A DNA stretch of 64,000 nucleotides from contig JBDRHK010000015.1 in NCBI GenBank assembly GCA_043816965.1, forward strand, positions 3,548 to 67,547, in the 5' to 3' direction. Position 1 is the stretch's first letter, and each line of letters starts with the position of its first letter. A model generated the notes under the pieces. It searched no databases, was not told where the DNA came from, and saw nothing but the letters and a program-made list of their open reading frames with translations. The DNA comes from Candidatus Iainarchaeum sp. Its GTDB lineage: Archaea; Iainarchaeota; Iainarchaeia; Iainarchaeales; JAFCCJ01. This document shows positions 3,378-34,316 of this stretch, piece by piece. The translations under genes were made by a program, and so were the position numbers.

Positions 3378-4568
3378 TCAAATTCCCAGGTAAAAAACTA
3401 TCACCGGCACCATCAGGAACGCCATGCAATTTGTCCTTTTTGTCCCTGTGCAAATTGTGAGCAACCCAACAGCTGCTGAAACAACCAGCAAAAGAATTCC
3501 AACAACCCCGCTAAACCAATAGACCAAAAAGAAAAGTAAAATAATTATTATTTTGTTAATTAGGGAGTAATCGAATCTCGAAAGATTCTTTGCAACAATT
3601 ATTGCCATCACCTCAGCGGCGATTGCCCCCACCCCAATCGCAATCAAGATAACCGCAATGAAAATCAGCAGGGTATTCCAGTCCAGTTTAACCAATTCCT
3701 TGACCGCAACAGCTGCTCCTGTCCTTGTTTTCCCAAGCAGGAAAAGGATAAAGAAACTGAAAATTATATTGGTTGTATTAATCCCGCCCAGCATTACAAG
3801 ATAGCCCTTGCTGCTCATTTTCCCCTTTAGTTTCCCTGCCATGAATGCTGCCTGGCTTGCCCCGACCCCGGGCAGTATGGAAACAAAACCCCCGGCCAGT
3901 GTGCTAAGAAGGGAATATTTTAAGACAGGATTTAATGGATATGAATCCTTTTTCACCAATTGTTTCCTCAATCTTGTTTTCACCCTTAAGGAGTTGAGCA
4001 GCGTGGATAGGCCAAAAAAACCAGTAACCAACGGAAATATTGGATTGCCTATTGCAAGGAAGTTCAGTGAAATTAATCCAATTACTGAGGAAAGCGCTAC
4101 AATAGCAAAACTCCACAGGATTTTATTCTGTTTCTTCTGCCAGAAAACCATAAAGAGAAGAATCAGGATAAGGATGAACGGAACAAACTGGTAAATTATT
4201 TTTCCCCATTCCTCAATGAAGAGAAAGTAAACAGGGGAAATCAGCACCGCAACAACACCCCCAAAAACCCCGCCAATGATTGTGAATTTTATCGCCGAAA
4301 CCCCCTCCCCCTTAAGCAGTAATTTATGCCCGGGAAGAACCGAAAGAAAAGTGCTTTCTTCCCCTGCCCCCAAAAAAACACTTGGGATGAAATCAACAAA
4401 TGACTGCACTGTGCTCATTGCGACAATCATCACCGCAACACCCAGGCCAAATTCCCCGAAAAGGCTGACCGCAACAAGGGCAACAGTGTTTGCATGGATT
4501 CCTGGAACCAGGCCTGTGGCAACTCCAAAAAAACAACCTACAAAAATAAAAAACAGAATCTCAATCAA
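3378..4568 (-). CDS. Polytopic membrane protein, DUF112/TctA-like
   Basis: About 10 or more hydrophobic segments. N-terminal GLVPGIHANT and the later LPGVGASQAA resemble the duplicated TctA/DUF112 motif. Assigned from memory of the family only. Confidence 0.5.
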   Translation of the reverse strand: MIEILFFIFVGCFFGVATGLVPGIHANTVALVAVSLFGEFGLGVAVMIVAMSTVQSFVDFIPSVFLGAGEESTFLSVLPGHKLLLKGEGVSAIKFTIIGGVFGGVVAVLISPVYFLFIEEWGKIIYQFVPFILILILLFMVFWQKKQNKILWSFAIVALSSVIGLISLNFLAIGNPIFPLVTGFFGLSTLLNSLRVKTRLRKQLVKKDSYPLNPVLKYSLLSTLAGGFVSILPGVGASQAAFMAGKLKGKMSSKGYLVMLGGINTTNIIFSFFILFLLGKTRTGAAVAVKELVKLDWNTLLIFIAVILIAIGVGAIAAEVMAIIVAKNLSRFDYSLINKIIIILLFFLVYWFSGVVGILLLVVSAAVGLLTICTGTKRTNCMAFLMVPVIVFYLGI

Positions 4569-4923
4569 CGCTTTCCACTTCCTCGGCGATGATTTCCAGC
4601 TGCCCCTTATATTTCTTAACCACGCCCCTGATTCTCACAAATTCATTTTCCCTTACCCCCGCCAATTCCCTGACAGTTGGGGAGAAAACAACAACCCTCA
4701 AACCCCCTTCCCCCCCGAGTGAAAAGAACAATGTGTCATTTGCGAAAAACCTTTCCCCAACCTTTCCCTGGGAAATAACTCTTTTGTCTAGCCAGCTTTC
4801 ATCAATTTCCCCGGGGGAGATTTCCAATGGCTCCTCCATAAACGCCAGAAACAGGAGCAGGATAATTCCTGCAAGGGAAACCAGGAGAGAAATCTTTTTC
4901 ACCAGAAAATCATTGAATTCCAT
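4561..4923 (-). CDS. Membrane-anchored OB-fold protein
   Basis: N-terminal TM helix, then a ~70-aa beta-rich region ending FVRIRGVVKKYKGQLEIIAEEVE, typical of tRNA_anti-like OB folds. Confidence 0.45.
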   Translation of the reverse strand: MEFNDFLVKKISLLVSLAGIILLLFLAFMEEPLEISPGEIDESWLDKRVISQGKVGERFFANDTLFFSLGGEGGLRVVVFSPTVRELAGVRENEFVRIRGVVKKYKGQLEIIAEEVESVD

Positions 4924-4956
4924 AGCTTATTTGGAAAAGAAAAGAAGATAAATAAT

Positions 4957-4970
4957 TCGTCAATTGACGA
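4957..4970. promoter_or_regulatory. Perfect 14-bp palindrome TCGTCAATTGACGA abutting a TATA-like box upstream of gene 4561..4923
   Basis: Read directly. On the minus strand the order is palindrome, ttatttatc (4947-4955), then ATG at 4923 about 23 nt later. The same arrangement occurs at 34283 and 31935. Confidence 0.45.
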
Positions 4971-4973
4971 ATA

Positions 4974-5567
4974 TTAGATTTTCTCTATTTCGACAGGCCT
5001 GGGCCCCAAAAGGCCCCTTTTAAGCCTAAGCTTAACCCTTTCCCCTTTTTTGAATTTCAAGCCTGATTTTATATTGTGCTTTTTCGCAACAGTCCAGGAC
5101 CTAAGATCAAATTCTGTTTCCACAAGGCAGTTCTCCCCGTCACTCATAATAACCTTTCCAAAACCATAGTTTCTTCTGAAAACCACCCAGAAAATTGCCA
5201 TGAAAATAAATAGCAGAATAATAAGCGCAAAAAAGAAAAAGCTCTGGCCTGAAAATTCAGGGGCAAAAACCGGCCCAAGCCAGCTCAGTTGGGCAATAAT
5301 AATCAAACCGACAAAGAAGTAGAGGTATGCGAAAAAATCCTCCTTGAATTCCTCCCGCCCCTCTGTTGCAAGCTCATAAAGGAGAATAACAATCAGAATT
5401 AATTCCGCAATCAAAAATAATTCATAAGGAATCAAAAATTTGAGAAAAACCCCTGCAATAATAACAAGCAGCAGAATCTGCATCTTGTAAACAAGATATG
5501 TGCGGTGGCTGAAATTGCCGACATTTTTCTCCAGGAATTTTTCAATCAAGCCAATCAGCTCGGGCAA
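4974..5567 (-). CDS. Hypothetical membrane protein
   Basis: Four or five hydrophobic helices followed by a soluble basic C-terminal domain. No recognisable motif. Confidence 0.4.
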   Translation of the reverse strand: MPELIGLIEKFLEKNVGNFSHRTYLVYKMQILLLVIIAGVFLKFLIPYELFLIAELILIVILLYELATEGREEFKEDFFAYLYFFVGLIIIAQLSWLGPVFAPEFSGQSFFFFALIILLFIFMAIFWVVFRRNYGFGKVIMSDGENCLVETEFDLRSWTVAKKHNIKSGLKFKKGERVKLRLKRGLLGPRPVEIEKI

Positions 5568-5980
5568 TTAGTGCTAGAAGGAATATTGTCCCTATCTGTG
5601 CCGTTAATGCACACATGCACAGTCTCATATTTGCTCCTCAAAATAATCTCGTCCCGAAGATAATCTTTGAATGCGGTGGTGTCTAGGTTCATGCTGCCCC
5701 CGGAAAGAATTAAATCCAGCTTAATTGTGTCATCGCCTACAGTCTCAAAAAGTATTTCCTCAATGTACTCCATAGAATCAATCTGGCTCAGTTTGTCGAT
5801 TGTTTTTTCCTTTGCAATTATCAGCGCAATTGTTGAATCTTTTATGACCACGTAATTGGAAAGAATCATGGTAACCAAACCTATTACCGCCGCGAAAACG
5901 ATAATCAGCTCATAGCTGACCTGGCCGGAATTACTAAGCCAATTTGACAGTGGTTGTAGAACCATCTTTTTCAACCTCAA
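5555..5980 (-). CDS. Pilin-like protein (class III signal peptide)
   Basis: ...LSNSG/QVSYELIIVFAAVIGLVTMIL. Overlaps the upstream gene. Confidence 0.6.
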   Translation of the reverse strand: MRLKKMVLQPLSNWLSNSGQVSYELIIVFAAVIGLVTMILSNYVVIKDSTIALIIAKEKTIDKLSQIDSMEYIEEILFETVGDDTIKLDLILSGGSMNLDTTAFKDYLRDEIILRSKYETVHVCINGTDRDNIPSSTNCPS

Positions 5981-6488
5981 GAGTTACCACTATTCCGGCA
6001 TAATTATCCATATTGTCTATTTTTAATCCGCCTGAGCAGTTAACACTGCTACTATCTAATAATAAGTCAAACACCTTGGCACATTTTTCATTATCCCCAT
6101 CAATGTCATTAATGCAGGCAGACGGGGCCGAGTAAGCATTCAATAAAATCCCGTCCAGCGCAACCTGGAAGCAGATCCCATTCACGCAAGTTGCGCCAAT
6201 ATCGCTTAACTGGCAGGTTAGGATGGTGTTCCCAGGCACAAAAAGAGTAATGGTCCTTTTATTTTCCCCGGGAGCAACGCTCACAGCATCAATGGTATTT
6301 GCAAGCTTTTCCGCGGCAAATCTCGCCTGGCCAATCCTTGCGGTTTCCTTGCCGCTTGCGGCGGCAATTGTAAGCGAAGGGTTAACGACAGTCTGAATGA
6401 ACAGGGCAATAATCATCACAAGCATAATTATTTCAATAGAGGCCTGACCCCGCCTGCCTAAATTTTGAAAAAAGGAAATAGAACCCAT
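5934..6488 (-). CDS. Pilin-like protein (class III signal peptide)
   Basis: ...NLGRRG/QASIEIIMLVMIIALFIQ. The start overlaps the end of the peptidase gene. Confidence 0.6.
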   Translation of the reverse strand: MGSISFFQNLGRRGQASIEIIMLVMIIALFIQTVVNPSLTIAAASGKETARIGQARFAAEKLANTIDAVSVAPGENKRTITLFVPGNTILTCQLSDIGATCVNGICFQVALDGILLNAYSAPSACINDIDGDNEKCAKVFDLLLDSSSVNCSGGLKIDNMDNYAGIVVTLEVEKDGSTTTVKLA

Positions 6489-7669
6489 AAAACATCCCCT
6501 ATCAATTGAAGCAACAAATAACCAATCAATATTCCTGGCACAAATGCTGTTGTTCCCTTCACCTCTATCTTTTTCGGAATTAAGCCCTTATTCGCAAGTT
6601 CCTTAATCTCTTTTAATTGCTCCCCTGTAAGGCCGCCGGCGCTTGAGGAACTTGCAACAACCCTTGCCCCTGGCTTAATCGCCTGGTTAAGGGCATCCAA
6701 ATTATTATCCATTAACTGCTTTATAAGTGTTCCTATAGAGGCCCCTTCCAGAATCTCTATTTTTCCGCCCTTTTCAACAATGGTTTTTAGCGGAATCTCC
6801 CCCTCCTCCAGGTCCCTGACATCTTTCTCCATTCCCAAAAGCCTTGCCAATGCCTTTTTTGGCCTGTGGTGCACAACAATTTCAATTGTGAGAGTAATGG
6901 TGAGAATGATAACAAAAACTACGGCAAAACTAAATATTGCGCTTGGCACAGAAAGGTAGAGCGCGAAGGCCAACAGAATGGCCGCAAGGAATTTCTGCAG
7001 GAGATAGCTTATTTTTTTAAGCCCAAGCAAGCCAATCACTGTAACAATTGGCAGATGGAATATTTCAGGAACTCCCAGGAAAATAAGAAGGGTTGCTGTC
7101 CCAACAATCGCCGCAGTTGTTATAACAATGCCGTTAATTTTTCTTTTCACCAATGCAACAACAACCCCCTTCAAATTCATTTTCTTTATCATTTCCCTTC
7201 TATCAATCATGCGCTTTAATGTTATTGCAGTCACCCATGGGACCATTGAAATAATGCTGAAAACGAAAAGCGAAAAAGGGAAGATTGGCTCTGAAACAGA
7301 CGCAAAATTAAAAGTAATGCCGAGAAGTGAAAGGCTTTCTAAACCAATTAAATCCCTGAGGACACCATGGTTTACTGTGTTGATTGTGGCAAGCCCTGTC
7401 ATCAGCTTAACATCGCCCCCCGCCCATCCCCCTGCCTTGTAAAGGAGCAATGAGCCAACGGCGGTGGCGAAGGTTACGGCGCCGGTTACAATGATTATTG
7501 AAGGGTCATTCGCAAGCAGGGACCTGATTCCCTGCAGAATCAGCCCGCCAAAAATAAGTGAAAATGTGAGTTTATTGGAAACAATCCTTTCCCGTAAATC
7601 GGTAAATGTGGCGATAATAAGGGCGATTATTGAAATTATGAAGAAGAAAATAGGAAAGCTGATAGGCAT
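6458..7669 (-). CDS. A24-family prepilin/preflagellin peptidase (FlaK/PibD/EppA-like) with an extra ~105-aa soluble domain
   Basis: Two catalytic Asp contexts: TFTD(24)LRERIVSN and GGWAGGD(86)VKLM (GxGDxK). Multiple TM helices. A soluble segment at aa ~267-373 precedes the last TM helix. Confidence 0.8.
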   Translation of the reverse strand: MPISFPIFFFIISIIALIIATFTDLRERIVSNKLTFSLIFGGLILQGIRSLLANDPSIIIVTGAVTFATAVGSLLLYKAGGWAGGDVKLMTGLATINTVNHGVLRDLIGLESLSLLGITFNFASVSEPIFPFSLFVFSIISMVPWVTAITLKRMIDRREMIKKMNLKGVVVALVKRKINGIVITTAAIVGTATLLIFLGVPEIFHLPIVTVIGLLGLKKISYLLQKFLAAILLAFALYLSVPSAIFSFAVVFVIILTITLTIEIVVHHRPKKALARLLGMEKDVRDLEEGEIPLKTIVEKGGKIEILEGASIGTLIKQLMDNNLDALNQAIKPGARVVASSSSAGGLTGEQLKEIKELANKGLIPKKIEVKGTTAFVPGILIGYLLLQLIGDVLWVLFPFFKI

Positions 7670-7673
7670 GTTA

Positions 7674-7844
7674 TCAGCCCATCAGAGATTCAATAGTTTC
7701 CGACCTGAATGAAAGAATTTTTGCCTGCGCAACATTCGCAATCGAAGCCAAGTTCATGGTTACAACCGAAGCTACCAAAACCAGCACCAGCACAAAGCCG
7801 ATGCTGATAAGGTACTCCAATGAAACTTGTGCCCTATTGTTCAT
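7674..7844 (-). CDS. Small (56 aa) pilin with class III signal peptide, not in the ORF track
   Basis: Hand translation: MNNRA/QVSLEYLISIGFVLVLVLVASVVTMNLASIANVAQAKILSFRSETIESLMG*. 171 nt including the stop. Confidence 0.65.
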   Translation of the reverse strand: MNNRAQVSLEYLISIGFVLVLVLVASVVTMNLASIANVAQAKILSFRSETIESLMG

Positions 7845-7860
7845 GCTTTACACATCATTC

Positions 7861-8193
7861 TTAGCAATCTGTAAGTGCGGGAAGTGGTGTAGCATATTCT
7901 TTTGCAGAACAAACCTTATCTATAGTGTCCCAACAGCAACCAGCAGCGTAGTCTGCATTAGCAGGTGCGAAATCACCCAAAGCTTTGTCTGTTGCGTCAC
8001 CCAAACAGCCAGTGCCGCCTACAGCTCCCATAGTACCGCCATAAGTATTCAAACAGCTTACTTTCGCAGCACTAATTCTTGCCGGTTTGTCGTCACTTAT
8101 GGTTGTCAGCAATACTATAACCACCACAGCAACAAGCACAGCACCGCCAATCAGCAGCAGATACTCAAGTGCACCTTGTCCTTTTCTATCCAT
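7861..8193 (-). CDS. Candidate major pilin, cysteine-rich C-terminal domain
   Basis: MDRKG/QGALEYLLLIGGAVLVAVVVIVLL, with six Cys in the C-terminal domain. A near-perfect Shine-Dalgarno (minus-strand AAGGAGGATGA; tcctcc at 8201-8206) lies 7 nt before the ATG, with TATA-like boxes upstream. Confidence 0.75.
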   Translation of the reverse strand: MDRKGQGALEYLLLIGGAVLVAVVVIVLLTTISDDKPARISAAKVSCLNTYGGTMGAVGGTGCLGDATDKALGDFAPANADYAAGCCWDTIDKVCSAKEYATPLPALTDC

Positions 8194-8278
8194 ATGTTCA
8201 TCCTCCTTTTGTTGGTTATAAATATGATATAATCTATCTAAACATATCCATTCTAGTATTTAAACCTTCTTCCGGCAT

Positions 8279-8443
8279 TTATCCAGTACTTTCCTCAAGC
8301 GCTTCGCCTGAAGTATCCTGGAGCTCCCGGCCAAGTGTTTTTAGATAAAAACCAACTGCCGCTGCAACTGCCAGAACCCCCCCTAAAATAAGGAGCATTT
8401 CAAGCGAACTTTGCGCCCTTTCCTCAAAAATCAATCCTTTCAT
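8279..8443 (-). CDS. Small (54 aa) pilin-like protein with class III signal peptide, not in the ORF track
   Basis: Hand translation: MKGLIFEERA/QSSLEMLLILGGVLAVAAAVGFYLKTLGRELQDTSGEALEESTG*. The ATG overlaps the stop of 8440..9414. Confidence 0.6.
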   Translation of the reverse strand: MKGLIFEERAQSSLEMLLILGGVLAVAAAVGFYLKTLGRELQDTSGEALEESTG

Positions 8444-9414
8444 GAAATACCACCCATTATTGACCTTGAACCAAACAATACAACTGTAAAGCAGATGTAT
8501 GCCACTAATAAGAGGAGTGGGAAGTATATAATACTTTTGCTCATCTTTCCATCTCTCATAAGTGAAATCATTATGCTTGCCGCAAGGGTTTCTATAAGAA
8601 CATATATCTGGATAAGCAGGGTTATGTCCTCCCTTGCCTTATCAGCAGCTTTGATTGCGGCATCATCTGCAACACCCTGGGCCGCAAGTATTAGGAAGCT
8701 TACAACAGTTGAAATAAAACCAAAGATTGCGGGAGCAACCAATGAGCCTGCAGTTACTAAGAAGATTACCTGCAGGCCTGTTTTTGACCTTCTTTCCTTG
8801 TTTATTCTATGTGTGGATCTGACATCTTCCGCAATCTGCTCAAGGATATCTGCCAATCCAGCACCTGCCTTGACAGAGTCAACAATTATTGTGACAGTTC
8901 TCTGTATAAGCCTTGAATCAATCTTGGAAAGAACTTTCAGCGAATTCTCGAAGTTTTCCCCCTCCTCAAGCTTCCTCAGGACATAGCCCATCTCCATTTT
9001 CAGTGCCCCATATTCGGATGCGGCAACTTCCCTCAGGGCATATTCATATGTTCCCCCGGCCCTCAATGTGTCGGCCATCTGCCTCAGCGCATCAGGCAGG
9101 GTTTCCTCAATTTCATCAATCCTTTTAAGTGCGTTCAGCAGGGGAAAGCCGATTGTAAGGTCAATGGCAACTATAAAAACTACTAATGGCAGGCCAGCCA
9201 GAACGCTCGTAAGAGAATCCATTTCAAGATAGTTTATCAGGGCATCAGAACCTGCCCAGGAACCGACAACAAGAAAAATCGACAAAAAAATGGAAAACAA
9301 AATCCAAAGGAAAGGGTCAAACCTGAATCCGCTCCATGCAAGCATTTTTGAGTAATATTTCAAAAAGCCTATGCTGTTCAGGACAGGAATCCTTTCCATC
9401 AGTCTCAATGCCAT
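8440..9414 (-). CDS. Type II secretion system F-domain membrane protein (TadC/FlaJ-like)
   Basis: T2SSF-like cytoplasmic helical domain (LPDALRQMADTLRAGGTYEYALREVA...AGAGLADILEQIAEDV) flanked by TM helices. Confidence 0.75.
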   Translation of the reverse strand: MALRLMERIPVLNSIGFLKYYSKMLAWSGFRFDPFLWILFSIFLSIFLVVGSWAGSDALINYLEMDSLTSVLAGLPLVVFIVAIDLTIGFPLLNALKRIDEIEETLPDALRQMADTLRAGGTYEYALREVAASEYGALKMEMGYVLRKLEEGENFENSLKVLSKIDSRLIQRTVTIIVDSVKAGAGLADILEQIAEDVRSTHRINKERRSKTGLQVIFLVTAGSLVAPAIFGFISTVVSFLILAAQGVADDAAIKAADKAREDITLLIQIYVLIETLAASIMISLMRDGKMSKSIIYFPLLLLVAYICFTVVLFGSRSIMGGIS

Positions 9415-9418
9415 AACA

Positions 9419-10570
9419 TCACACCGTCGGTTGCGCTATTTTTAGGTAATAAACAAGTAAAATCATTATCCCTGGCATAAGCACCAGGTAGAATATTCCC
9501 ATCATTGTGGGGTTAAGCCCAAGGCCGCCAACATTCGGCAGTGGGGAGTTTGTTATTCCCCCAATAACGGCAACAAACACAGGAATAACAATTGCCATAA
9601 AGATAAATATCACCCCGAAGAAATTCATCTTCTCCCCGAAATCCCTCATCGCAATCCTGAGCTCAAAAGAAACATCCTCGGCAATCTTGTTCATTATGTC
9701 CGAGAGGTTTCCCCCTGTCTTAAGCGCACGTATTATGTGGAGCAATGCGCTTCTTAAGGATTTGGATTCTGTCCTCAGTGCAAAGTGCCTTAGGGCAACT
9801 TTAGTGTCTGTTCCCTCCTCAACCTCGGAAATGGTCCTTGAAAATTCCTCTGAAAGGACGCCATAATCAGAAACAGCGATTGCCTGCAGTGTTTTGTAAA
9901 GCCCTATTCCTGCCTTTAATTCTGTTGACATATGCCTGAGGGCAAAGGGAAGCTCAACACTGATTTCCTTACCCCTCTTCATTGCCTTACTTTTTGGGTT
10001 GAGGAAGCAGATAATGGCTGCAAATAGGAACACAAAAATTGCAATAATCGGCGAAAGCAGCAAAATTAAGTTGTTGTCAAGGAACCAGCCAAGTCCTGCA
10101 AACAAAAGCAGCACAAAGAATGCAGCAATCACTGAAACAGAGGTTGAAATCGCAAGATATTGCTGGATGCTGTATTTCATGTTTGCGCTGTAAAGGTAAT
10201 AGCCTAACTCCCCCGCCCCCGGCATTCTTCTCAGAATCTTTGAAATGAACTTTAAGGGAAGCTCAAACAAAAGATAAACCCTGCCCAAGCTCCTGATTGT
10301 GGGGGAACTGAATTCAGTTAAATCCTCAATTCCCTGCACCCTTATTTTTGACAGCTGGCTTTCGGCAATTATTCCCCGCAGTTCGCTTAATCTGCCGCCA
10401 ACTTCCTCAAATTCAACTCCCTGATCCCGATATTTTTTTTTCATCCTGGTTACAATCTTGTCCACCGCATCAAGGTCGATTGATTCCTCATCCTTTTCAA
10501 TCGCGCCGAACTTTTTGGCCGTTTTCTTTTTTTCTTCAACCTGTTTTCTCAGATCATCAAGTTCAGGCAT
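9419..10570 (-). CDS. Type II secretion system F-domain membrane protein (TadB/FlaJ-like)
   Basis: [26 protein letters not shown]...[16 protein letters not shown] plus TM helices. Paired with 8440..9414 like TadB/TadC. Confidence 0.75.
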
Positions 10571-13500
10571 ATTCTCCCCTCTTCTTTAGCAGGTGGTCCT
10601 GGCAGGCTTTTGATACCTCTTCTATAGACCTTATCTTCTTGTCAACAAGGCTCTTAAGAAACCTTTCCCTGTCCTTAAGTTCGGCATCAATCTGCTTTTT
10701 TGACAGTCCGGTGTATTTTTCAAGTGTCCTGAGGTATGCGCTGGAGAAATTGGACCGAATGAGTTGATCAGTTATTGCATCCCTTTCGAAAAGGGTTTGG
10801 GTTGTTGATTTGCCCTCCAAGACCCCGCCAACCTCCGCCATCTCGGTAATTCTTCTAATGGTGCCTTTTTTCCTGTCATGAAGCCTGTGTTCTATAAGCA
10901 CGAAATCAAGCCCTGAAAGCATCATCTTAGGGACATTCATCGGAGGGCTTGTGACCCTTACTAGTGCCTCTTGGGGAGAGTTTGCGTGGACAGTCCCCAT
11001 GCAATTTGAAACAAACAAGCCATTGGCAATGTAATTGTGGTTATCTTTAACAGTCAGGTCGTAAACATATCCCTCGAATTCCCGGTCCTTCACTTCAACT
11101 ATTTCCTCGAACCTGAAATCAGATTCAACTAATTTTAAAAGTTCCTTTCCAATGGAATTTTCGGAAGTTATCATTGCAATTTTTTCCAGTTGCCCTCTCG
11201 ACGGATTTCTTTGGTTAGTTTCGTATGCCTCAATCGTTGACCTTGTTTTTGCATTCATAAAAGATGCCAATTCTGTTTGCGTTAAGTAACAATCGCTCCT
11301 CGCCCTTTTGATTAAACCGGAAATTTTCGGGAACAAATCCATCGAATTTTTTGAAACTTTCAATAGTCCTGCTAGTTTTTGCCTTTTTGCAGAATGCCTG
11401 AAGCCGATTTTCCCCTGGTATTTTTCAAGGTTATCCTTACCATAAATTGAAATTCTGTAGTAAGGGCCAATATTTCCTTTGCCGTCTTTTTCCTGAATAT
11501 TTGTTGAGGAGTGAATCCCGAATCTCTGGAGAATCATCGGAAGTTTTTTTGCCAGGTCGGGGTTTGATGTTGAGAATTGGATTGAGTTTGAATGCAGATT
11601 CACATGGGCCTCAGCATCGAAAAACCCGCATAATAATTCCCCGATATTTGACTCACTTGAACTTAAAGCCTTTTTCGTTATTTTGAATTTTTTTGTTTTA
11701 TTCCCTAGAGGAATATCATACTCCTCTTCAAAAAGTTTAACCAATTTTTTGTCAAAAACATTTACTCTGGAATAGTTTCCATAGTTTTTGACCGATACCT
11801 TGTTTTTGGTGGTTTTTCCAATCCCGTCCGCAAAATTTTCAATGACTGATTTTTCGTTGTTCACAAACTGAATCCCTTCGCTGTGAATGTGCCCATCTCC
11901 ATAAATCAATCCTGCCAAGTAGGGATGTTTTATTTTTTCCGTGGCACTAATCGTGATTGCCTTTGGAAATGCAATGAAATCCCCCCCCTTTGCCTCTTCA
12001 GAATTTATTTCCTGAATGCCATTATGTATCCTGTAAATCGGATGGTCTTTTGTCAAACAAATGCGTTTTCCTGAGCGGGTTTTTATTATTTTCATCATTT
12101 CTTTTGTTTTCTTCTTCCAGACCCGCGTAATTGGCCTGTTTTCAATTTTCAATGTCTTTTTGTTAAAGCTTGGGACAAGCAGTTCTTCACTTAATTCAAC
12201 AAATTTAAATTCTCCGTCGCTTATTGGACATGTTTCATTAAATTGCCTTTCAACAAAATCCCCAATTGCCTCAATATTCCCGTCTGAAAACTGAATTAAT
12301 GTTTCTCCATTTAATGCGCCTTCATGGCCGGTATTCATGGCGGTAAAAAGCGAGAATGCCTCATCATGCCTTATCTCACCAACTATAATTCTGTCAGGCC
12401 TCATCCTGAGGGAATTTTTAGTCAAAATATCCATTGTTATTTCCCCAGTTCCCTCCATTCCCGGGGGCCTTGATTCAAGCCTTATCCAGTGTTTTAAGGG
12501 AAGGTTCAGTTCTGCAGTGTCCTCAATTGAAACAATCCTTTCAGAAGCAGGAATAAATGAGGCAAGAACATTCAAAGTTGTTGTTTTCCCTGAACCGGTT
12601 CCTCCCGCAATCAGAATGTTTGCGGGCTTTACCCTCAATCCCTCAACACAAAGCCAGAGGAATGCAGCGGTTTCAAGGTTTACTGTATTGAGGTTCAGCA
12701 AATCAACTATTGACAACGGGTCTTCCCTGAATTTCCTTATAGTGAGGGTTGCACCACTTACAGATATGGGGGGGATGGTCGCATTAACCCTGCTCCCATC
12801 AGGGAGTCTTGCATCCAGCAAGGGGGCGGAAATATCAACCCTTCTTCCCACCTGCCTTCCTATCCTGTTTACGAGGTCCTCTATCTCGGACTCGGAAAAG
12901 AATTCAATATTGGTTTTCATCATTTCATATTCCCTGTGGAAAACATAAACCGGGCGTTTTGCGCCAATAACCATAATTTCCTCAAGCCTGTCATCCTTTA
13001 TCAGGGAATCAATAAGCCCATATCCGACCATCTCCCTCACAACAGCATCTGCATAAAACTCAAATCTTCTAGTTGGAATCCTTAACTCTTTCGAGGTCTG
13101 CAGGATTTCCATTATTTTCTGCTGGTAAACACTTCTCCTCTCTTCAGGGTCACGGATTTTGTAGGGGATTATGCTGATTATTCTTGTTGCAGCTTCCTTT
13201 ATTGTGTTGATTATTGTTTTATCCCCCTTCGTCGGCCTTGGCACAGGGGTATAGTAGTACATCAGGGGTTGGCCAGGAATTTCATATATTGTCGTATTTC
13301 CGTAAGATGCAACCTTAATTTTCTTTACATTTTCCATCTCCTTTTCGATTGTTGATTTATCCGGTTCTTCCTCTCCTTCTTTGGCGGGAATTCCCTCCAC
13401 CGAGGCAGGCCCCTTAGGCACTTCAGGGGATTTTCTCCTCTCAAAAATGTTCATAATCCCCTCCTTCCTGCTCTCAATTTCAGGAGTCTCCTCTTTTACC

Positions 13501-13682
13501 GGGGCAGCCACTGGCTCTTGGCGGGCCAAAAATTCATCTGCAGAAGGACCATTGGCTATAGGTTGCGAAGTTGCAGGGCCAGTTTCTATAGTAGACCCCT
13601 CTACCTTAATCCCCTTTTTTTCCTTTGCCTTTCTAATCAGATCATCCAAAGGGTTAGACATATATATCCCATTAATCAACAA
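10563..13682 (-). CDS. Type IV pilus/secretion ATPase (VirB11/FlaI/KlbA family) interrupted by an intein
   Basis: Walker [33 protein letters not shown]. The conserved AMNTGHEG...CMGTVHANS box is split by 438 aa. The extein alone would be ~601 aa with a low-complexity acidic N-terminal extension. Confidence 0.9.
11004..12317 (-). mobile_element. Intein (438 aa) with LAGLIDADG homing endonuclease and HTH insert; Ala1 ... Ser-Asn / Cys+1
   Basis: Boundaries by hand: GHEG|[10 protein letters not shown]... and ...[13 protein letters not shown]|CMGTVHAN. Block [18 protein letters not shown] motifs [13 protein letters not shown] and [13 protein letters not shown]. Visibly more AT-rich than the flanking extein. 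Confidence 0.85.
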
Positions 13683-24427: not shown

Positions 24428-24997
24428 TTGCAACAATTCTTAACTATTGCCAGGCAAAAGTGGATTTTCTTTGAAAAGCAAACTTTTTATTTGTTTTCGC
24501 TTAGAATTACTAATGGTGCTAATTTGGAAATAACCCTTGATAAGACCGACCATAAGATTATTCAGTGCCTTCTTGAGGATGGGCGCATGAGTTTCAGCAG
24601 CATAGCAAAAGACGTCCAGCTTACCGATGTTGCAATAAAGAAAAGGGTTGAAAGGCTTAAGAGAAAGGGCGTGATAAATTCAATAACTGCCGATTTGAAC
24701 CTCAAGGTTTTGGGCTATGAAAATCCGATTTTTGTGCAAATCCGCTCCGAAATGGGCAAGACAAAAAATTTGGTTAAGAGGCTTTCTGATTTTGATTATG
24801 TGATAGAACTCTACCAAATTCTGGGCGAGTATAATCTCCTTGCGAAGTTAGTGCTTCCGGACATTGATTCTGCCGAGAAATTCATTAACCAGCTTGGGGT
24901 TTTGGATGGGATTCTTGACATAAAAACCCAGATGATTCTTAGCGAACTGAAGAAAAGCAATTCTCTCCCCATATTCTCCTTCCAGAAAAAACTTTGA
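24428..24997 (+). CDS. Lrp/AsnC family transcriptional regulator
   Basis: LDKTDHKIIQCLLEDGRMSFSSIAKDVQLTDVAIKKRVERLKRKGVI (HTH_AsnC) plus a RAM-like C-domain. The true start is probably downstream (in-frame TTG at 24524, about 30 nt after TATA-like ctttttatt). Confidence 0.8.
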   Translation: MQQFLTIARQKWIFFEKQTFYLFSLRITNGANLEITLDKTDHKIIQCLLEDGRMSFSSIAKDVQLTDVAIKKRVERLKRKGVINSITADLNLKVLGYENPIFVQIRSEMGKTKNLVKRLSDFDYVIELYQILGEYNLLAKLVLPDIDSAEKFINQLGVLDGILDIKTQMILSELKKSNSLPIFSFQKKL

Positions 24998-31216: not shown

Positions 31217-31837
31217 TCAGAATATTGGCTGCAGGATTAAAAAATAAATCCACGGGGCAAACACACCTATTGCGGCAATCGCCATTGCCACCCCCCAAAC
31301 AGGAATGCTCCATGTAAAAACCTTGGAGCCATCCAAAGGCCCAATAGGGAGAAGATTGAACAGGGCGAGGAAGAAATTTATCATTGCCGAATAAGAGAAA
31401 ATGTCTGACACCAAATCCGTCGGCTTAAACACGGCAAGCAGGATAAGGAACATGAATGCCACAACAATATTTGTGGCAGCACCGGCAACAGAAATTAGCC
31501 CATTTTGCTCCCTTGTTATATGGCTGCCAGATATGTAAACTGCGCCAGGTGCGGCAAACAAAAACCTTCCAAAAGTTATCAGCGGAAGGAGTATTGTGAA
31601 AAGCAATCCTGTTGTCCATGCCCTGTATTCTGCGTTAAGCCCATAATATTTGGCAACCTGCCTGTGCGCAAGCTCATGCAAAATAAAGCCAGTTCCAACC
31701 CCGACCAGTGCGATGGGAAGTTTTTCCCCAAAATCACCAAAATTCAGAAATTCCGACAGCACCCATGCAAACCCAAGGCTGATGGTTAACCATGAAATGA
31801 TTAAATCGTTTCTTTCCCTGGATTCCAAAACAACCAC
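31217..31837 (-). CDS. M50 (site-2 protease) family membrane metalloprotease
   Basis: HELAHRQVAKYYG (HExxH) and NLLPIGPLDGSKV (NxxPxxxLDG) within TM helices. Confidence 0.8.
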   Translation of the reverse strand: MVVLESRERNDLIISWLTISLGFAWVLSEFLNFGDFGEKLPIALVGVGTGFILHELAHRQVAKYYGLNAEYRAWTTGLLFTILLPLITFGRFLFAAPGAVYISGSHITREQNGLISVAGAATNIVVAFMFLILLAVFKPTDLVSDIFSYSAMINFFLALFNLLPIGPLDGSKVFTWSIPVWGVAMAIAAIGVFAPWIYFLILQPIF

Positions 31838-31934
31838 CTAAAAGCAGTAATTATTTGTTATCGGCATCACTTAAATAAGCTTTAGGTCTGTTTATCGCCC
31901 CTTTTTGCGTACTAATTTCTTTAAATATAAATAT

Positions 31935-31946
31935 CGTCAATCAACG
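31935..31946 (+). promoter_or_regulatory. Degenerate copy (CGTCAATCAACG) of the CGTCAATTGACG motif abutting the TATA box of the second pilin-like cluster
   Basis: atatcgtcaatcaacgtaatatttaag, with ATG 31982 about 24 nt after the TATA-like aatatttaag. Confidence 0.35.
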
Positions 31947-31981
31947 TAATATTTAAGTTATTTTCCCAGCACCATTATTGC

Positions 31982-32554
31982 ATGAATCCCCGAGGAATTT
32001 TCTCCTTCATATTGGTTTTGCTCTTCATCCAGCTAATTGTTGTTTCTGCAGGAATCAATTCCTCAACCAGCAGGGAAATTGGGGAAGCCATAAACACCCT
32101 CATTGAACTTGAAAACTCCTCCCTGAAAAGGGCCGAGCTGGAGCAGAATCTGGATTTCCTGATAAAAAAGGCTGTTGAGAGGGAGGTTTTCTTTGGAAAT
32201 TCCGAGCCTGAGTTGATTGAGCAGAAACTAAACCATGAAATTGATTCCTTTGTTTCCCAAACTGAAAGCATTTACGGTGCAAGCCCGAAAATGGAATTCA
32301 ATTTAGTTCAGGATTTCCAAAGATTGAAAATTCCCCAAAAAAAGGCCCGCAGGAAACTGGGAAAAGGGGAGCTGCACAACTACTTCAATGTAATGGTTCT
32401 GAACCTTGAGGAAAATATTTTCATCGTGGAATTTGATTATTCCGGGGGCCTGATGAAAGACCATCGCTTCTTTGCGGTAATTTCCTCTCCAAAAACCGAG
32501 CAGTTGTTTGAGATTCCGGCAGGATACACGCAAATCATTACGGTGGTTAGATGA
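31982..32554 (+). CDS. Pilin-like protein (class III signal peptide-like N-terminus)
   Basis: MNPRG/IFSFILVLLFIQLIVVSAG. Confidence 0.5.
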   Translation: MNPRGIFSFILVLLFIQLIVVSAGINSSTSREIGEAINTLIELENSSLKRAELEQNLDFLIKKAVEREVFFGNSEPELIEQKLNHEIDSFVSQTESIYGASPKMEFNLVQDFQRLKIPQKKARRKLGKGELHNYFNVMVLNLEENIFIVEFDYSGGLMKDHRFFAVISSPKTEQLFEIPAGYTQIITVVR

Positions 32555-32892
32555 TAAGTATTGAGGCGATGATTTGCTTCCTTGTGTTTGTAATACTTCT
32601 CGGAATTATTGCCGCAGGAATTGGGGAACAGATTCAATTGTTTGATTTTTCATCAGGCGCATTCATTGCAAGAAATGAATCAGAAAAATGCGCGGTTCTT
32701 GTTGATGCCCTCTATTCGAATGGAGGGGGGACACTGAATGAAAACAAATTTGGCTGCTTTATTTCGGAAAACGGGATTTCCTCAAAGTTTGGGGATTGGG
32801 AAAAGGCATCCCTCACTGTAAGCAATTCTGCAGTGCAGGTTGAGGGGGATTTAAGCATGATTGAGGTTAATGGGGATGGCCATTATAGGTGA
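32551..32892 (+). CDS. Pilin-like small protein (very short leader)
   Basis: MISIEAMICFLVFVILLGIIAAGI: x-S-x-E followed by a hydrophobic helix. ATGA overlap with the upstream gene. Confidence 0.4.
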   Translation: MISIEAMICFLVFVILLGIIAAGIGEQIQLFDFSSGAFIARNESEKCAVLVDALYSNGGGTLNENKFGCFISENGISSKFGDWEKASLTVSNSAVQVEGDLSMIEVNGDGHYR

Positions 32893-33361
32893 GAGGGGCC
32901 TTATATTCAGCCTGGATTTGGCTGTGGCGGTGATGGTTATGTTTGCGATTGCCTTTCTCATACTCCTGCATTCAGCCTCACTAATCGAAAATAACGCTTC
33001 CCTCCAAAACAGGCTCTCTTTGGAAAGAAAGGCAATCTATCTTGCGGATTCCCTTGTAAAAAACCGGAGTCCTGAAAATCCGCTTTTAGGGTCGGCCAGT
33101 TACAATCCTCTCCTGAAAAGGGTGGAAACAAACAAAATTGATTATTCACTACTCAAATCAATTTCAGATAAAAATTTTGGCCTTAATGGAATTTCAATTT
33201 CACTTTTGGAAATCGAATACAAAAACAGGGAAAAGGAAAAAATAATTGAAAACCCCCTTTCTGGCGAATGCATCTCAGTTGAAAGATTTGTCCTGATGCA
33301 AAAAATCTTGCCTGAAAAGGCATTGTTAAGGCTGGTGGTGTGTGATGCATCTCTCAACTGA
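32861..33361 (+). CDS. Pilin-like protein (class III signal peptide)
   Basis: ...IIGERG/LIFSLDLAVAVMVMFAIAFLIL. Confidence 0.55.
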   Translation: MRLMGMAIIGERGLIFSLDLAVAVMVMFAIAFLILLHSASLIENNASLQNRLSLERKAIYLADSLVKNRSPENPLLGSASYNPLLKRVETNKIDYSLLKSISDKNFGLNGISISLLEIEYKNREKEKIIENPLSGECISVERFVLMQKILPEKALLRLVVCDASLN

Positions 33362-33686
33362 GGCCCTATTTTCCCTCTTTCTGCTTTGCTCAGTCCTGCT
33401 GCTCCCAGCCTCCTTTTCCAGCCCATCCTATTCCGAGGTGCTGCTTGTGCAGAAGGGGAATGACCTATTGGCGGTATGGATGATGCAGCGCTCATTTTCG
33501 CAGAGGGAAATCCTTTCTGACATCCAATTGGTTTTTCCCATGCATGCTGTTCTTGTTGAAATTGACGGAAGTGAATACTGGCACAATAAAAGAAATTTTG
33601 CGGGAATGGACGCAACGTCCTCATCAATATTTTTTCTTGATGATTCCCTCCAGCTGAAAGAATTAAGGCTCACCATTTACCACTGA
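33342..33686 (+). CDS. Pilin-like small protein (short leader)
   Basis: MMHLSTEALFSLFLLCSVLLL. Confidence 0.4.
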   Translation: MMHLSTEALFSLFLLCSVLLLPASFSSPSYSEVLLVQKGNDLLAVWMMQRSFSQREILSDIQLVFPMHAVLVEIDGSEYWHNKRNFAGMDATSSSIFFLDDSLQLKELRLTIYH

Positions 33687-34076
33687 AACTTTCCCGGAAT
33701 TTTTTTCCAGTTTCAGCCTGATTTCATTTTCGGCCCTGAAAGGTAAAAGGGAAAAATTTGCATTCACTTCCCTCTCGAGTTTCTTCCCTCTCCCAAGTTC
33801 TGAACTTTCAACTATCAGGATTAATTTCATGTTCTCGTTTTTGAGTTCCCATTGATTTATCACGTTAGAGGAAATTTGGAGGGAACTTCCATCACCAAGG
33901 ACATTCATCCTCTCTATCCCCAATTTTAAATCATCAATAAAGTGCTCGGCATTCCTCACATCCAGGCCAAACTTGGCGGCCTGGACAGTATTGTTTATCG
34001 CAGGAACAAGGAAAAGCAGGCAGGAAAAGAATGCGGCCAGAAGTATGATATATTCCAGGCTTAGTTGTCCGCGCAT
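33663..34076 (-). CDS. Pilin-like protein (class III signal peptide)
   Basis: MRG/QLSLEYIILLAAFFSCLLFLV. Confidence 0.6.
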   Translation of the reverse strand: MRGQLSLEYIILLAAFFSCLLFLVPAINNTVQAAKFGLDVRNAEHFIDDLKLGIERMNVLGDGSSLQISSNVINQWELKNENMKLILIVESSELGRGKKLEREVNANFSLLPFRAENEIRLKLEKNSGKVSVVNGEP

Positions 34077-34247
34077 TCAGATATCCTCAATCTGCTCGAA
34101 TATTTCGCTTGTTTTGTTGTCGATTACCTTTGCCCCCTCCTCGGTTGTTTTCTGGAGCTGGCTTACGAGAAGCAAAACTATCGCAACAACCGCGGCAAGG
34201 ACAATAATCATTTCCACAGAAATCTGCGCTTTTTCCTCATAAAACAT
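34077..34247 (-). CDS. Small (56 aa) pilin with class III signal peptide, not in the ORF track
   Basis: Hand translation: MFYEEKA/QISVEMIIVLAAVVAIVLLLVSQLQKTTEEGAKVIDNKTSEIFEQIEDI*. The stop abuts the ATG of 33663..34076. Confidence 0.6.
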   Translation of the reverse strand: MFYEEKAQISVEMIIVLAAVVAIVLLLVSQLQKTTEEGAKVIDNKTSEIFEQIEDI

Positions 34248-34282
34248 AAGGAAATGATGAAGGGAAGTTATTTTAAATATTA

Positions 34283-34294
34283 CGTCAATTGACG
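34283..34294. promoter_or_regulatory. Palindrome CGTCAATTGACG abutting the TATA box of small-pilin gene 34077..34247
   Basis: On the minus strand: atattcgtcaattgacgtaatatttaaaa, then 23 nt, then ATG 34247. Confidence 0.45.
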
Positions 34295-34316
34295 AATATA
34301 ATCAATTGCCCTTTTT

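Follow-up and report, generated by a model that had tools for sequence, protein, structure and literature searches.

What are the very short open reading frames (ORFs) that lie in two pilus loci of Candidatus Iainarchaeum sp., and does any of them encode the pilus fibre? The question was raised by a stretch of 64,000 nucleotides from one metagenome-assembled genome of this archaeon, a member of the Iainarchaeota (Diapherotrites, DPANN) (GenBank assembly GCA_043816965.1, contig JBDRHK010000015.1, positions 3,548 to 67,547 of the forward strand), which is called the window here and in whose numbering all positions are given. An earlier note on this DNA had picked out three ORFs of fewer than 60 codons, A, B and C, and had read them as minimal pilins that could be either the actual fibre subunit or a priming or cap subunit. 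Analysis of the window and of related Iainarchaeota contigs (designated L001, L003 and so on) showed that A, B and C are genuine genes under strong purifying selection. They encode helix-only proteins resembling type IV pilins and belonging to an Epd-like (archaeal Tad-like) pilus; these proteins would be cleaved by a prepilin peptidase and incorporated into the filament.

Three small genes under purifying selection

All three ORFs were found with the translations given in the earlier note, and all lie on the minus strand, the strand being something that the note had not given; read on the plus strand, the same coordinates give translations full of stops. ORF A (54 residues, 8279..8443) is joined to the preceding gene, its ATG overlapping the TGA stop of an upstream T2SSF (TadC-like) gene as ATGA. 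ORF B (56 residues, 7674..7844) starts 16 nucleotides past the stop of the gene for a 110-residue pilin, M, and ends 4 nucleotides before the ATG of a prepilin peptidase gene. ORF C (56 residues, 34077..34247) is the first gene of a two-gene operon at a second locus, and its stop directly abuts the ATG of the gene (33663-34076, minus strand) for a class III protein of 137 residues. Two antisense ORFs on the plus strand, 7756-8232 and 8411-8986, were weighed as alternatives and rejected as shadows of constrained minus-strand genes.

Frames of this size in intergenic gaps could be open by chance and be no genes at all, a view that draws on how short the three are and on the scores of B and C, which fall under the Pfam gathering threshold (see below). 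It is refuted by conservation. The ratio of non-synonymous to synonymous substitution rates (dN/dS, by the Nei-Gojobori method) was calculated against orthologues on related contigs. A gave 0.02-0.08, B 0.02-0.125 and C 0.07-0.17, with many synonymous changes; A and its counterpart in L001, for example, differ by 13 synonymous changes and 1 non-synonymous change. The T2SSF genes gave 0.07-0.17, the peptidase 0.19-0.29 and the 137-residue partner of C 0.25-0.46. The earlier note had looked to relatives for conservation and for constraint on synonymous sites, and both were found decisively, the three genes being kept phylum-wide.

The related loci, 80 in number, were fetched with a 12-sequence alignment of the T2SSF (TadC-like) gene; most are titled Iainarchaeum, Diapherotrites or unclassified archaeon. 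The gene order in them is the second T2SSF gene, A (67 loci), none to three copies of M, B (about 50 loci), the peptidase and two larger class III proteins. The A-type ORF has 40-62 residues in its 67 loci and, in the 45 loci where all three pilin types were measured, begins 0-51 nucleotides after the end of the T2SSF match. The B-type ORF has 55-58 residues in most loci and is separated from the peptidase gene by -8 to +15 nucleotides in 41 of 48, while the M-type pilins range from 51 to 196 residues across loci. Class III proteins of about 160-200 and about 110-140 residues follow 3' of the peptidase in 53-56 loci. For ORF C there are 90 homologue clusters (49-93% identity, mostly 53-65 residues), and both its synteny and a partner gene of the 137-residue type are kept in relatives, including distant ones.

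Positions and lengths kept in this way over dozens of genomes speak strongly against chance frames, as does a motif scan of the window. Seven ORFs of the 64 kb, all of them within the two pilus loci, match [GAS]Q.[SATG].E with a hydrophobic stretch after it, whereas 100 mononucleotide shuffles and 100 triplet shuffles gave no match. Independent pipelines also call the three as genes, and the chance that they are accidental frames is practically nil.

The claim that the genes were missed by the ORF track is credible: A, B and C each have fewer than 60 residues, the default cut-off of the ORF list, and a standard track with that default therefore omits them, whereas the small-ORF listing made here was run with a 30-residue minimum. 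The wider claim that they are lost by annotation proved wrong. GenBank already has all three on the same 69,627-bp contig, alongside pilin M: A is MFH1586396.1, for which the entry already gives the name 'class III signal peptide-containing protein', and B (MFH1586394.1) and C (MFH1586422.1) are both entered as hypothetical proteins. JGI calls them too, and the orthologues on related contigs have likewise been called as genes by gene callers in independent pipelines. The ORF B product has exactly the sequence of a protein entered in GenBank for 'Candidatus Diapherotrites archaeon'. The 90%-identity protein cluster that contains B also includes a 368-residue JGI protein called 'DNA processing protein', probably a fused or mis-clustered call.

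Helix-only pilins and the pilus machinery

Each of the three proteins begins with a class III leader. The leader and first mature residue are MKGLIFEERA/Q in A, MNNRA/Q in B and MFYEEKA/Q in C (the slash marks the predicted cleavage site), leaving predicted mature proteins of 44, 51 and 49 residues. Around the site the sequences read EERA/QSSLE, NNRA/QVSLE and EEKA/QISVE: position -2 is charged, -1 is Ala, +1 is Gln and +5 is Glu (with Tyr6 next in B), and a stretch of over 20 hydrophobic residues comes after. The family alignments show little or no variation at these positions, and all three proteins carry the motif of class III/EppA substrates; a validated EppA substrate, EpdA, is cut at RA/QI, also with Ala at -1 (PMC4371748 Table 1). 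After the hydrophobic helix only 19-26 residues remain, which form an acidic polar tail in A and an acidic amphipathic tail in C.

The top Pfam match for A, B and C is PF04021 (Class_IIIsignal; DUF361 or UPF0333-type). The score of A, 27.1 bits, is above the gathering threshold of 23.7; B (20.1 bits) and C (20.0 bits) are just below it, which counts against the assignment of these two. At E<=0.01 the family was matched by 31 of 31 sampled members of the C family and by 14 of 41 members of the B family, and some homologues of C have precomputed PF04021 matches or are named 'UPF0333 family'. Cross-scoring with hidden Markov models (HMMs) separated A, B, C and M into four distinct paralogous families.

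AlphaFold2 predicted C as a single uninterrupted helix (residues 2-54, predicted local distance difference test score, pLDDT, 89.2) and, from a shallow 4-sequence alignment, B as a single helix (residues 2-55, pLDDT 89.6). Foldseek found no match for the single-helix model in the PDB, as is expected for a lone helix, and the C-family profile and pilin M (with the query one codon off) gave only chance matches, with E>0.3, against the sequences of solved structures. The reading of the three as pilins is thus upheld by the class III signal peptide and by the setting in a pilus locus, and their description as Flp-like in size, and as little more than leader, helix and short tail, agrees with the predicted mature lengths and the single helix.

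Membership of two other families was considered and rejected. No match to Flp_Fap (PF04964) was seen for A, B or C at E<=1. With TIGR04205 (classIII_w_PIP, associated with archaeosortase D), A scored 27.8 and C 14.4 bits against a cut-off of 65 bits, and the similarity covered the leader and helix only.

ORFs A and B belong to locus 1, a minus-strand cluster in the order threonyl-tRNA synthetase, T2SSE ATPase, two T2SSF proteins, A, M, B, peptidase, two class III proteins, DUF2101 protein, OB-fold protein and TctA-like protein. The Epd-like/Tad clade is defined by two single-T2SSF platform genes together with short pilins (Denise et al., PMC6668835), and the window has two adjacent single-T2SSF genes and a T2SSE ATPase. 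The ATPase (10563..13682, PF00437) is of the T2SSE/VirB11 type involved in assembly and is interrupted by an intein. The platform genes (9419-10570 and 8440-9414) match PF00482 once each and are TadB/TadC- or EpdJ/K-like. The prepilin peptidase (6458..7669, 403 residues) is an EppA-like, multi-pass protein of family A24 with matches to PF01478 and PF06819 (Arc_PepC); a crude hydropathy count gave 8 hydrophobic segments, compared with about 9 transmembrane (TM) segments in the long EppA type. Its best NCBIfam match is PrePilPeptEppA, ahead of FlaK, but the score of 47 bits against an equivalog cut-off of 450 bits weighs against the EppA-like assignment. Then come the two larger class III proteins (5934-6488, 184 residues, and 5555-5980, 141 residues), candidates for minor pilins that have globular domains. 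The next gene (4974-5567) encodes a DUF2101 membrane protein. The intein in the ATPase has about 430-450 residues with LAGLIDADG and helix-turn-helix domains; the closest relative, L001, has a 592-residue orthologue without an intein.

At locus 2, four overlapping plus-strand genes (31982-32554, 32551-32892, 32861-33361 and 33342-33686, encoding 190, 113, 166 and 114 residues) converge on ORF C and its 137-residue partner. Their products are pilin-like, having hydrophobic N-termini with a degenerate xxSxE motif (e.g. the leaderless M-ISIE, or GERG/LIFSLD); a Pfam scan of the four gave no match. The same six-gene arrangement is found in L086-88 and L093-94, and partly on the short contig L092. 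The locus is adjoined, both here and in relatives, by the gene of a site-2 protease-like peptidase of the M50 family (31217-31837, minus strand), and in a distant relative this gene stands directly 3' of the partner gene of ORF C.

Small pilins are ordinary for an Epd/Tad-like system, and A, B and C are members of a kind already known. Short pilins have been documented for both Epd and Tad systems (PMC3875500, PMC6668835, PMC10710030). In the Epd system the major pilin, EpdE/MMP1685, has 74 residues (62 mature), and the small pilin-like proteins MMP0528, MMP0903 and EpdD/MMP1283 have 67-76, the minor pilin EpdD being essential for piliation (PMC3875500). Tad pilins have 40-60 residues and no globular domain, and their fibres are all-helical and packed in the archaeal manner (PMC10710030).

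The closest parallel drawn was with the Epd pilus of Methanococcus maripaludis. Shared with it are class III leaders ending in [KR][GA], with Gln at +1 and Glu at +5; pilins that are helix-only or nearly so; a dedicated long peptidase, which in the window is EppA-like; two single-T2SSF platform genes and one ATPase; several larger minor pilins beside the peptidase; and a small pilin gene (one or more) that lies apart from the machinery. The differences are that the window proteins are shorter (44-51 against 54-63 mature residues), have 0-1 N-glycosylation sequons against 4 in EpdE, usually have Ala and not Gly at -1, and are only weakly similar to EpdE (27.5 bits at most). Furthermore, the machinery, pilins, peptidase and OB-fold/TctA-like genes form one cluster here but are spread over at least 4 loci in Methanococcus, and the tail of the candidate major pilin M is Cys-rich and 75 residues long.

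Bacterial Tad/Flp (type IVc) pilins such as Caulobacter crescentus PilA (PDB 8U1K) and Aggregatibacter Flp-1 also have 40-60 mature residues, no globular domain, one helix and a polar C-terminal half. The Glu5-Tyr6 pair of B and M and the TadB/TadC platform pair are further likenesses. In tad loci the order flp-tadV places the pilin genes directly upstream of the prepilin peptidase gene, and the pilin genes of the window are likewise directly upstream of the peptidase gene. Tad is thought to have been derived from an Epd-like archaeal system. Unlike Tad/Flp, the small proteins of the window lack a Flp_Fap match (C alone has a sub-threshold match to Flp1_like, 13.9 bits against a cut-off of 33.5); the cleavage context is the archaeal [KR]A/Q and not the G/xxxxEY of Flp, with Met instead of Tyr at +6 in A and C; and the system has no secretin or outer-membrane component.

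Pilin M and the fibre question

A route of assembly can be proposed on this basis. A, B and C would insert in the membrane via the single hydrophobic helix, and the adjacent EppA-like peptidase would take off a leader of 5-10 residues by cutting between Ala(-1) and Gln(+1). Extraction of the processed subunits into a filament would then be the work of the T2SSE ATPase together with the pair of TadB/TadC-like platform proteins. The main subunit of the fibre would most likely be the variable pilin M, with A, B and C probably priming, anchoring or capping it, and the whole system would probably serve surface or host attachment and DNA uptake.

Pilin M (7861..8193, minus strand), the candidate major pilin, has the leader MDRKG/Q and the head GALEYLLLIGGAVLVA, and scores 32.4 bits with PF04021. 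The head is near-invariant, while the tail of about 75 residues is Cys-rich and hypervariable. Over the first 28 mature residues the mean pairwise identity in matched genomes is highest for M, at 72%, against 43% for A and 52% for B; the identity of the M tail, 17%, is at noise level. In about 40% of loci M is itself helix-only (51-66 residues). In the window its gene has an 85-nucleotide AT-rich spacer upstream and the ribosome-binding site AAAGGAGG. Across the loci, a Shine-Dalgarno match of at least 5 nucleotides precedes M in 76%, A in 38% and B in 29%. Of 45 loci, 10 have a TATA-like box upstream of M and none has one upstream of B, an enrichment that is modest and therefore lends weak support.

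The variability of the tail was traced at the DNA level. A blastn comparison of the window with L001 gave 88% identity from 10600 to 8104, 83% from 7844 to 4900 and no match between. The break points fall at codon 30 of M, after its first 90 nucleotides, and at the ATG of ORF B. The intervening minus-strand segment, 7845..8103, consists of the C-terminal domain of M and the 16-nucleotide spacer. Because DNA homology to this closest relative stops at 8103-7845 and resumes exactly at the start of ORF B, it appears that the M tail is swapped like a cassette. The M protein tails are unalignable in L001, L003 and L005, whereas A and B are 98% and 96% identical to those of the closest relative. Among the four pilins M alone occurs in tandem copies, with 2-3 paralogues in several genomes, in some of which all are shorter than 66 residues. 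In L035, the tandem M-type genes 7283-7573 and 7667-7957 are identical over the first 75 of 96 residues, the stretch compared.

For A and B, the genetic context points elsewhere. The coupling of A to the platform gene and of B to that of the peptidase suggests machine-level rather than fibre-level stoichiometry, and the tail of B is conserved and fairly hydrophobic (mean Kyte-Doolittle value +0.42), unlike a filament surface. These same observations could mean that A, B or C are pilin-like but never polymerise and are single-pass subunits bound to the machine; A, for instance, might associate with the TadB/C platform, and B might serve the peptidase as cofactor, regulator or decoy substrate. 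The tight spacings kept between T2SSF and A and between B and the peptidase are in keeping with such a role, the tail of B would suit a buried interface better than a filament surface, and purifying selection is stronger on the small proteins than on the enzymes. However, the full prepilin motif needed by polymerising subunits is kept (Gln+1 and Glu+5, with the Tad-like Glu5-Tyr6 in B), and there are precedents, such as EpdD, for small minor pilins that piliation requires. Such permanent residence in the machine is therefore considered quite improbable.

The possibility that the small proteins are the actual fibre subunit, one of the two roles suggested in the earlier note, is disfavoured for A and B because M, which lies between them, bears the signatures expected of a major pilin; the other role, an accessory one, is likelier. 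We therefore favour, with some confidence though far from certainty, the assignment of A, B and C as accessory pilins and of M as the major pilin. On this assignment A, B and C are probably invariant proteins of low abundance.

Several observations weigh against this division of roles, and they allow one or more of the small proteins to be the main fibre subunit, most likely A, as the equivalent of EpdE or Flp, or C, standing alone away from the machinery as EpdE does, with M as a decorating or adhesive pilin. EpdE, a validated major pilin, is itself helix-only (74 residues), and the Flp/Tad pilins (40-60 residues) are also helix-only yet form fibres. When EpdE (Q6LWM4, the sequence of which was confirmed by an exact database match) was scored with the family HMMs, the best score was with A (27.5 bits), followed by C (17.9), small M (17.7) and B (13.4); A could thus be its equivalent. 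The similarity of EpdE to A is weak and driven by the N-terminal helix, though most of the protein is covered by the alignment. A has a polar and acidic tail that is phylum-wide as variable as that of M (17% identity), as would be expected of a filament surface. In the compared relatives, however, A is retained with its tail (75-98% overall identity) where the M tail is wholly replaced; translational coupling ties the gene for A to the platform gene, and its Shine-Dalgarno match is weaker than that of M.

The case for C is a different one. Its head is as conserved as that of M (77%, in a set biased by the way it was discovered) and it has its own TATA promoter, and on these grounds C could form a fibre too; its gene also stands before a group of pilin-like genes, in the way that gspG or comGC stand before genes for minor pilins. 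Against this, the tail of C is also retained in the compared relatives (73-93% overall identity), and conservation over the whole length fits a fixed partner better than an exposed surface. Finally, locus L070 has A and B but no M, which would suit a fibre of small subunits, whereas in matched genomes it is M that has the best conserved head and M only that has tandem copies. Taking both sides together, a fibre made of A or C seems rather unlikely, and M remains our candidate for the major pilin.

Putative DNA-uptake genes and a shared promoter module

The last two genes of locus 1, both on the minus strand and overlapping by 8 nucleotides, encode an OB-fold protein with a single TM helix (4561-4923, PF01336) and a multi-pass membrane protein that is TctA-like (3378-4568, PF01970, at least 10 hydrophobic segments). 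In M. maripaludis a pair consisting of an OB-fold protein that has one TM helix together with a TctA-like protein, MMJJ_13020/MMJJ_13030, is essential for natural transformation, for which the Epd pilus is also required (Fonseca et al. 2023, PMC10133366). An M50 peptidase was also a hit in the Methanococcus transformation screen (PMC10133366). The pair in the window is the same as MMJJ_13020/MMJJ_13030 in architecture and order, and with the Epd-like pilus it makes up, at the level of architecture, the transformation gene set. The linkage is not confined to the window: among the 44 Iainarchaeota loci with enough flanking sequence, a TctA-like gene lies 3' of the pilus locus on the same strand in 34, and an OB-fold gene could be detected in 24.

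A second connection is provided by the promoters. The palindrome TTCGTCAATTGACG directly abuts a TATA box 33-50 nucleotides upstream of three start codons. Its sites, of the form (T)TCGTCAATTGACG, are at 34280-34297 (ORF C), 31933-31949 (the four-gene operon of locus 2) and 4955-4972 (the OB-fold/TctA operon). The search gave 5 matches, representing these 3 sites, where 0.09 were expected, and the exact 12-mer occurred 2 times against an expectation of 0.05. In relatives the module of palindrome and TATA box is found at the same positions. The palindrome looks like a shared operator of the three operons, and its position suggests that the ORF C operon is co-regulated with the putative translocator. 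A candidate for the protein that binds it is an Lrp/AsnC regulator. A gene for such a regulator (24428-24997, plus strand) lies about 9 kb from ORF C in the window; in relatives an Lrp/AsnC gene is directly upstream of the ORF C homologues (6464-6937 in L086, 3438-3911 in L093).

The OB-fold/TctA-like pair follows locus 1 and has a promoter/operator module in common with the ORF C operon, which suggests that the pilus serves DNA uptake. The case for such a role is weakened in that the correspondence to MMJJ_13020/MMJJ_13030 is seen at the level of gene linkage and domain architecture. None of the papers searched describes these Iainarchaeota pilins, or a linkage of TctA to pili in DPANN archaea.

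The Com (type IVd) pilus of Gram-positive bacteria offers an analogy, and an analogy only. Like comGC, the small pilin gene C heads a cluster of pilin-like genes, and there is a link to putative DNA-uptake genes. Membership of ComGC or ComGE was rejected for ORF C: its weak NCBIfam/Pfam matches to ComGE and ComGC (E 0.002-0.012) are far below the cut-offs and involve the hydrophobic helix only. Unlike the Com system, the window has no ComEA or ComEC homologues, and the candidate translocator is TctA-like.

Taken together, these features could describe a compact 'competence island' of the Iainarchaeota, DPANN archaea with reduced genomes, a model that is put forward as possible but doubtful. 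In it an Epd/Tad-like pilus of four pilin families (A, B and C invariant and helix-only with 44-51 residues, M with a swappable tail) would be clustered with an OB-fold/TctA-like pair as proposed DNA receptor and translocator. The operons of ORF C, of the four pilin-like genes and of the OB-fold/TctA pair would form one regulon via the palindrome CGTCAATTGACG, possibly under an Lrp/AsnC regulator, and A, B and C would constitute a helix-only module for priming or anchoring the fibre. If true, that module would differ from the beta-sheet-based tip complexes of other type IV filaments.

For annotation, the result takes B and C from hypothetical proteins to recognisable pilin families, B with a fixed position in a phylum-wide pilus locus. 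Pilins of fewer than 60 codons are the rule in these systems, and ORF cut-offs at 60 residues will always truncate the picture. This part is mostly housekeeping; the linked DNA-uptake genes and the shared operator are of more interest. With A, B and C invariant and the tail of M swapped like a cassette, there is a concrete system in which to ask what in a minimal pilus is exposed and what is structural. The linkage of the pilus to OB-fold/TctA-like genes in 34 of the 44 informative loci gives independent comparative support to a hypothesis that has so far come from Methanococcus genetics, namely that the two proteins act together with the pilus when archaea take up DNA, and it predicts natural competence or nucleotide scavenging in this DPANN lineage.

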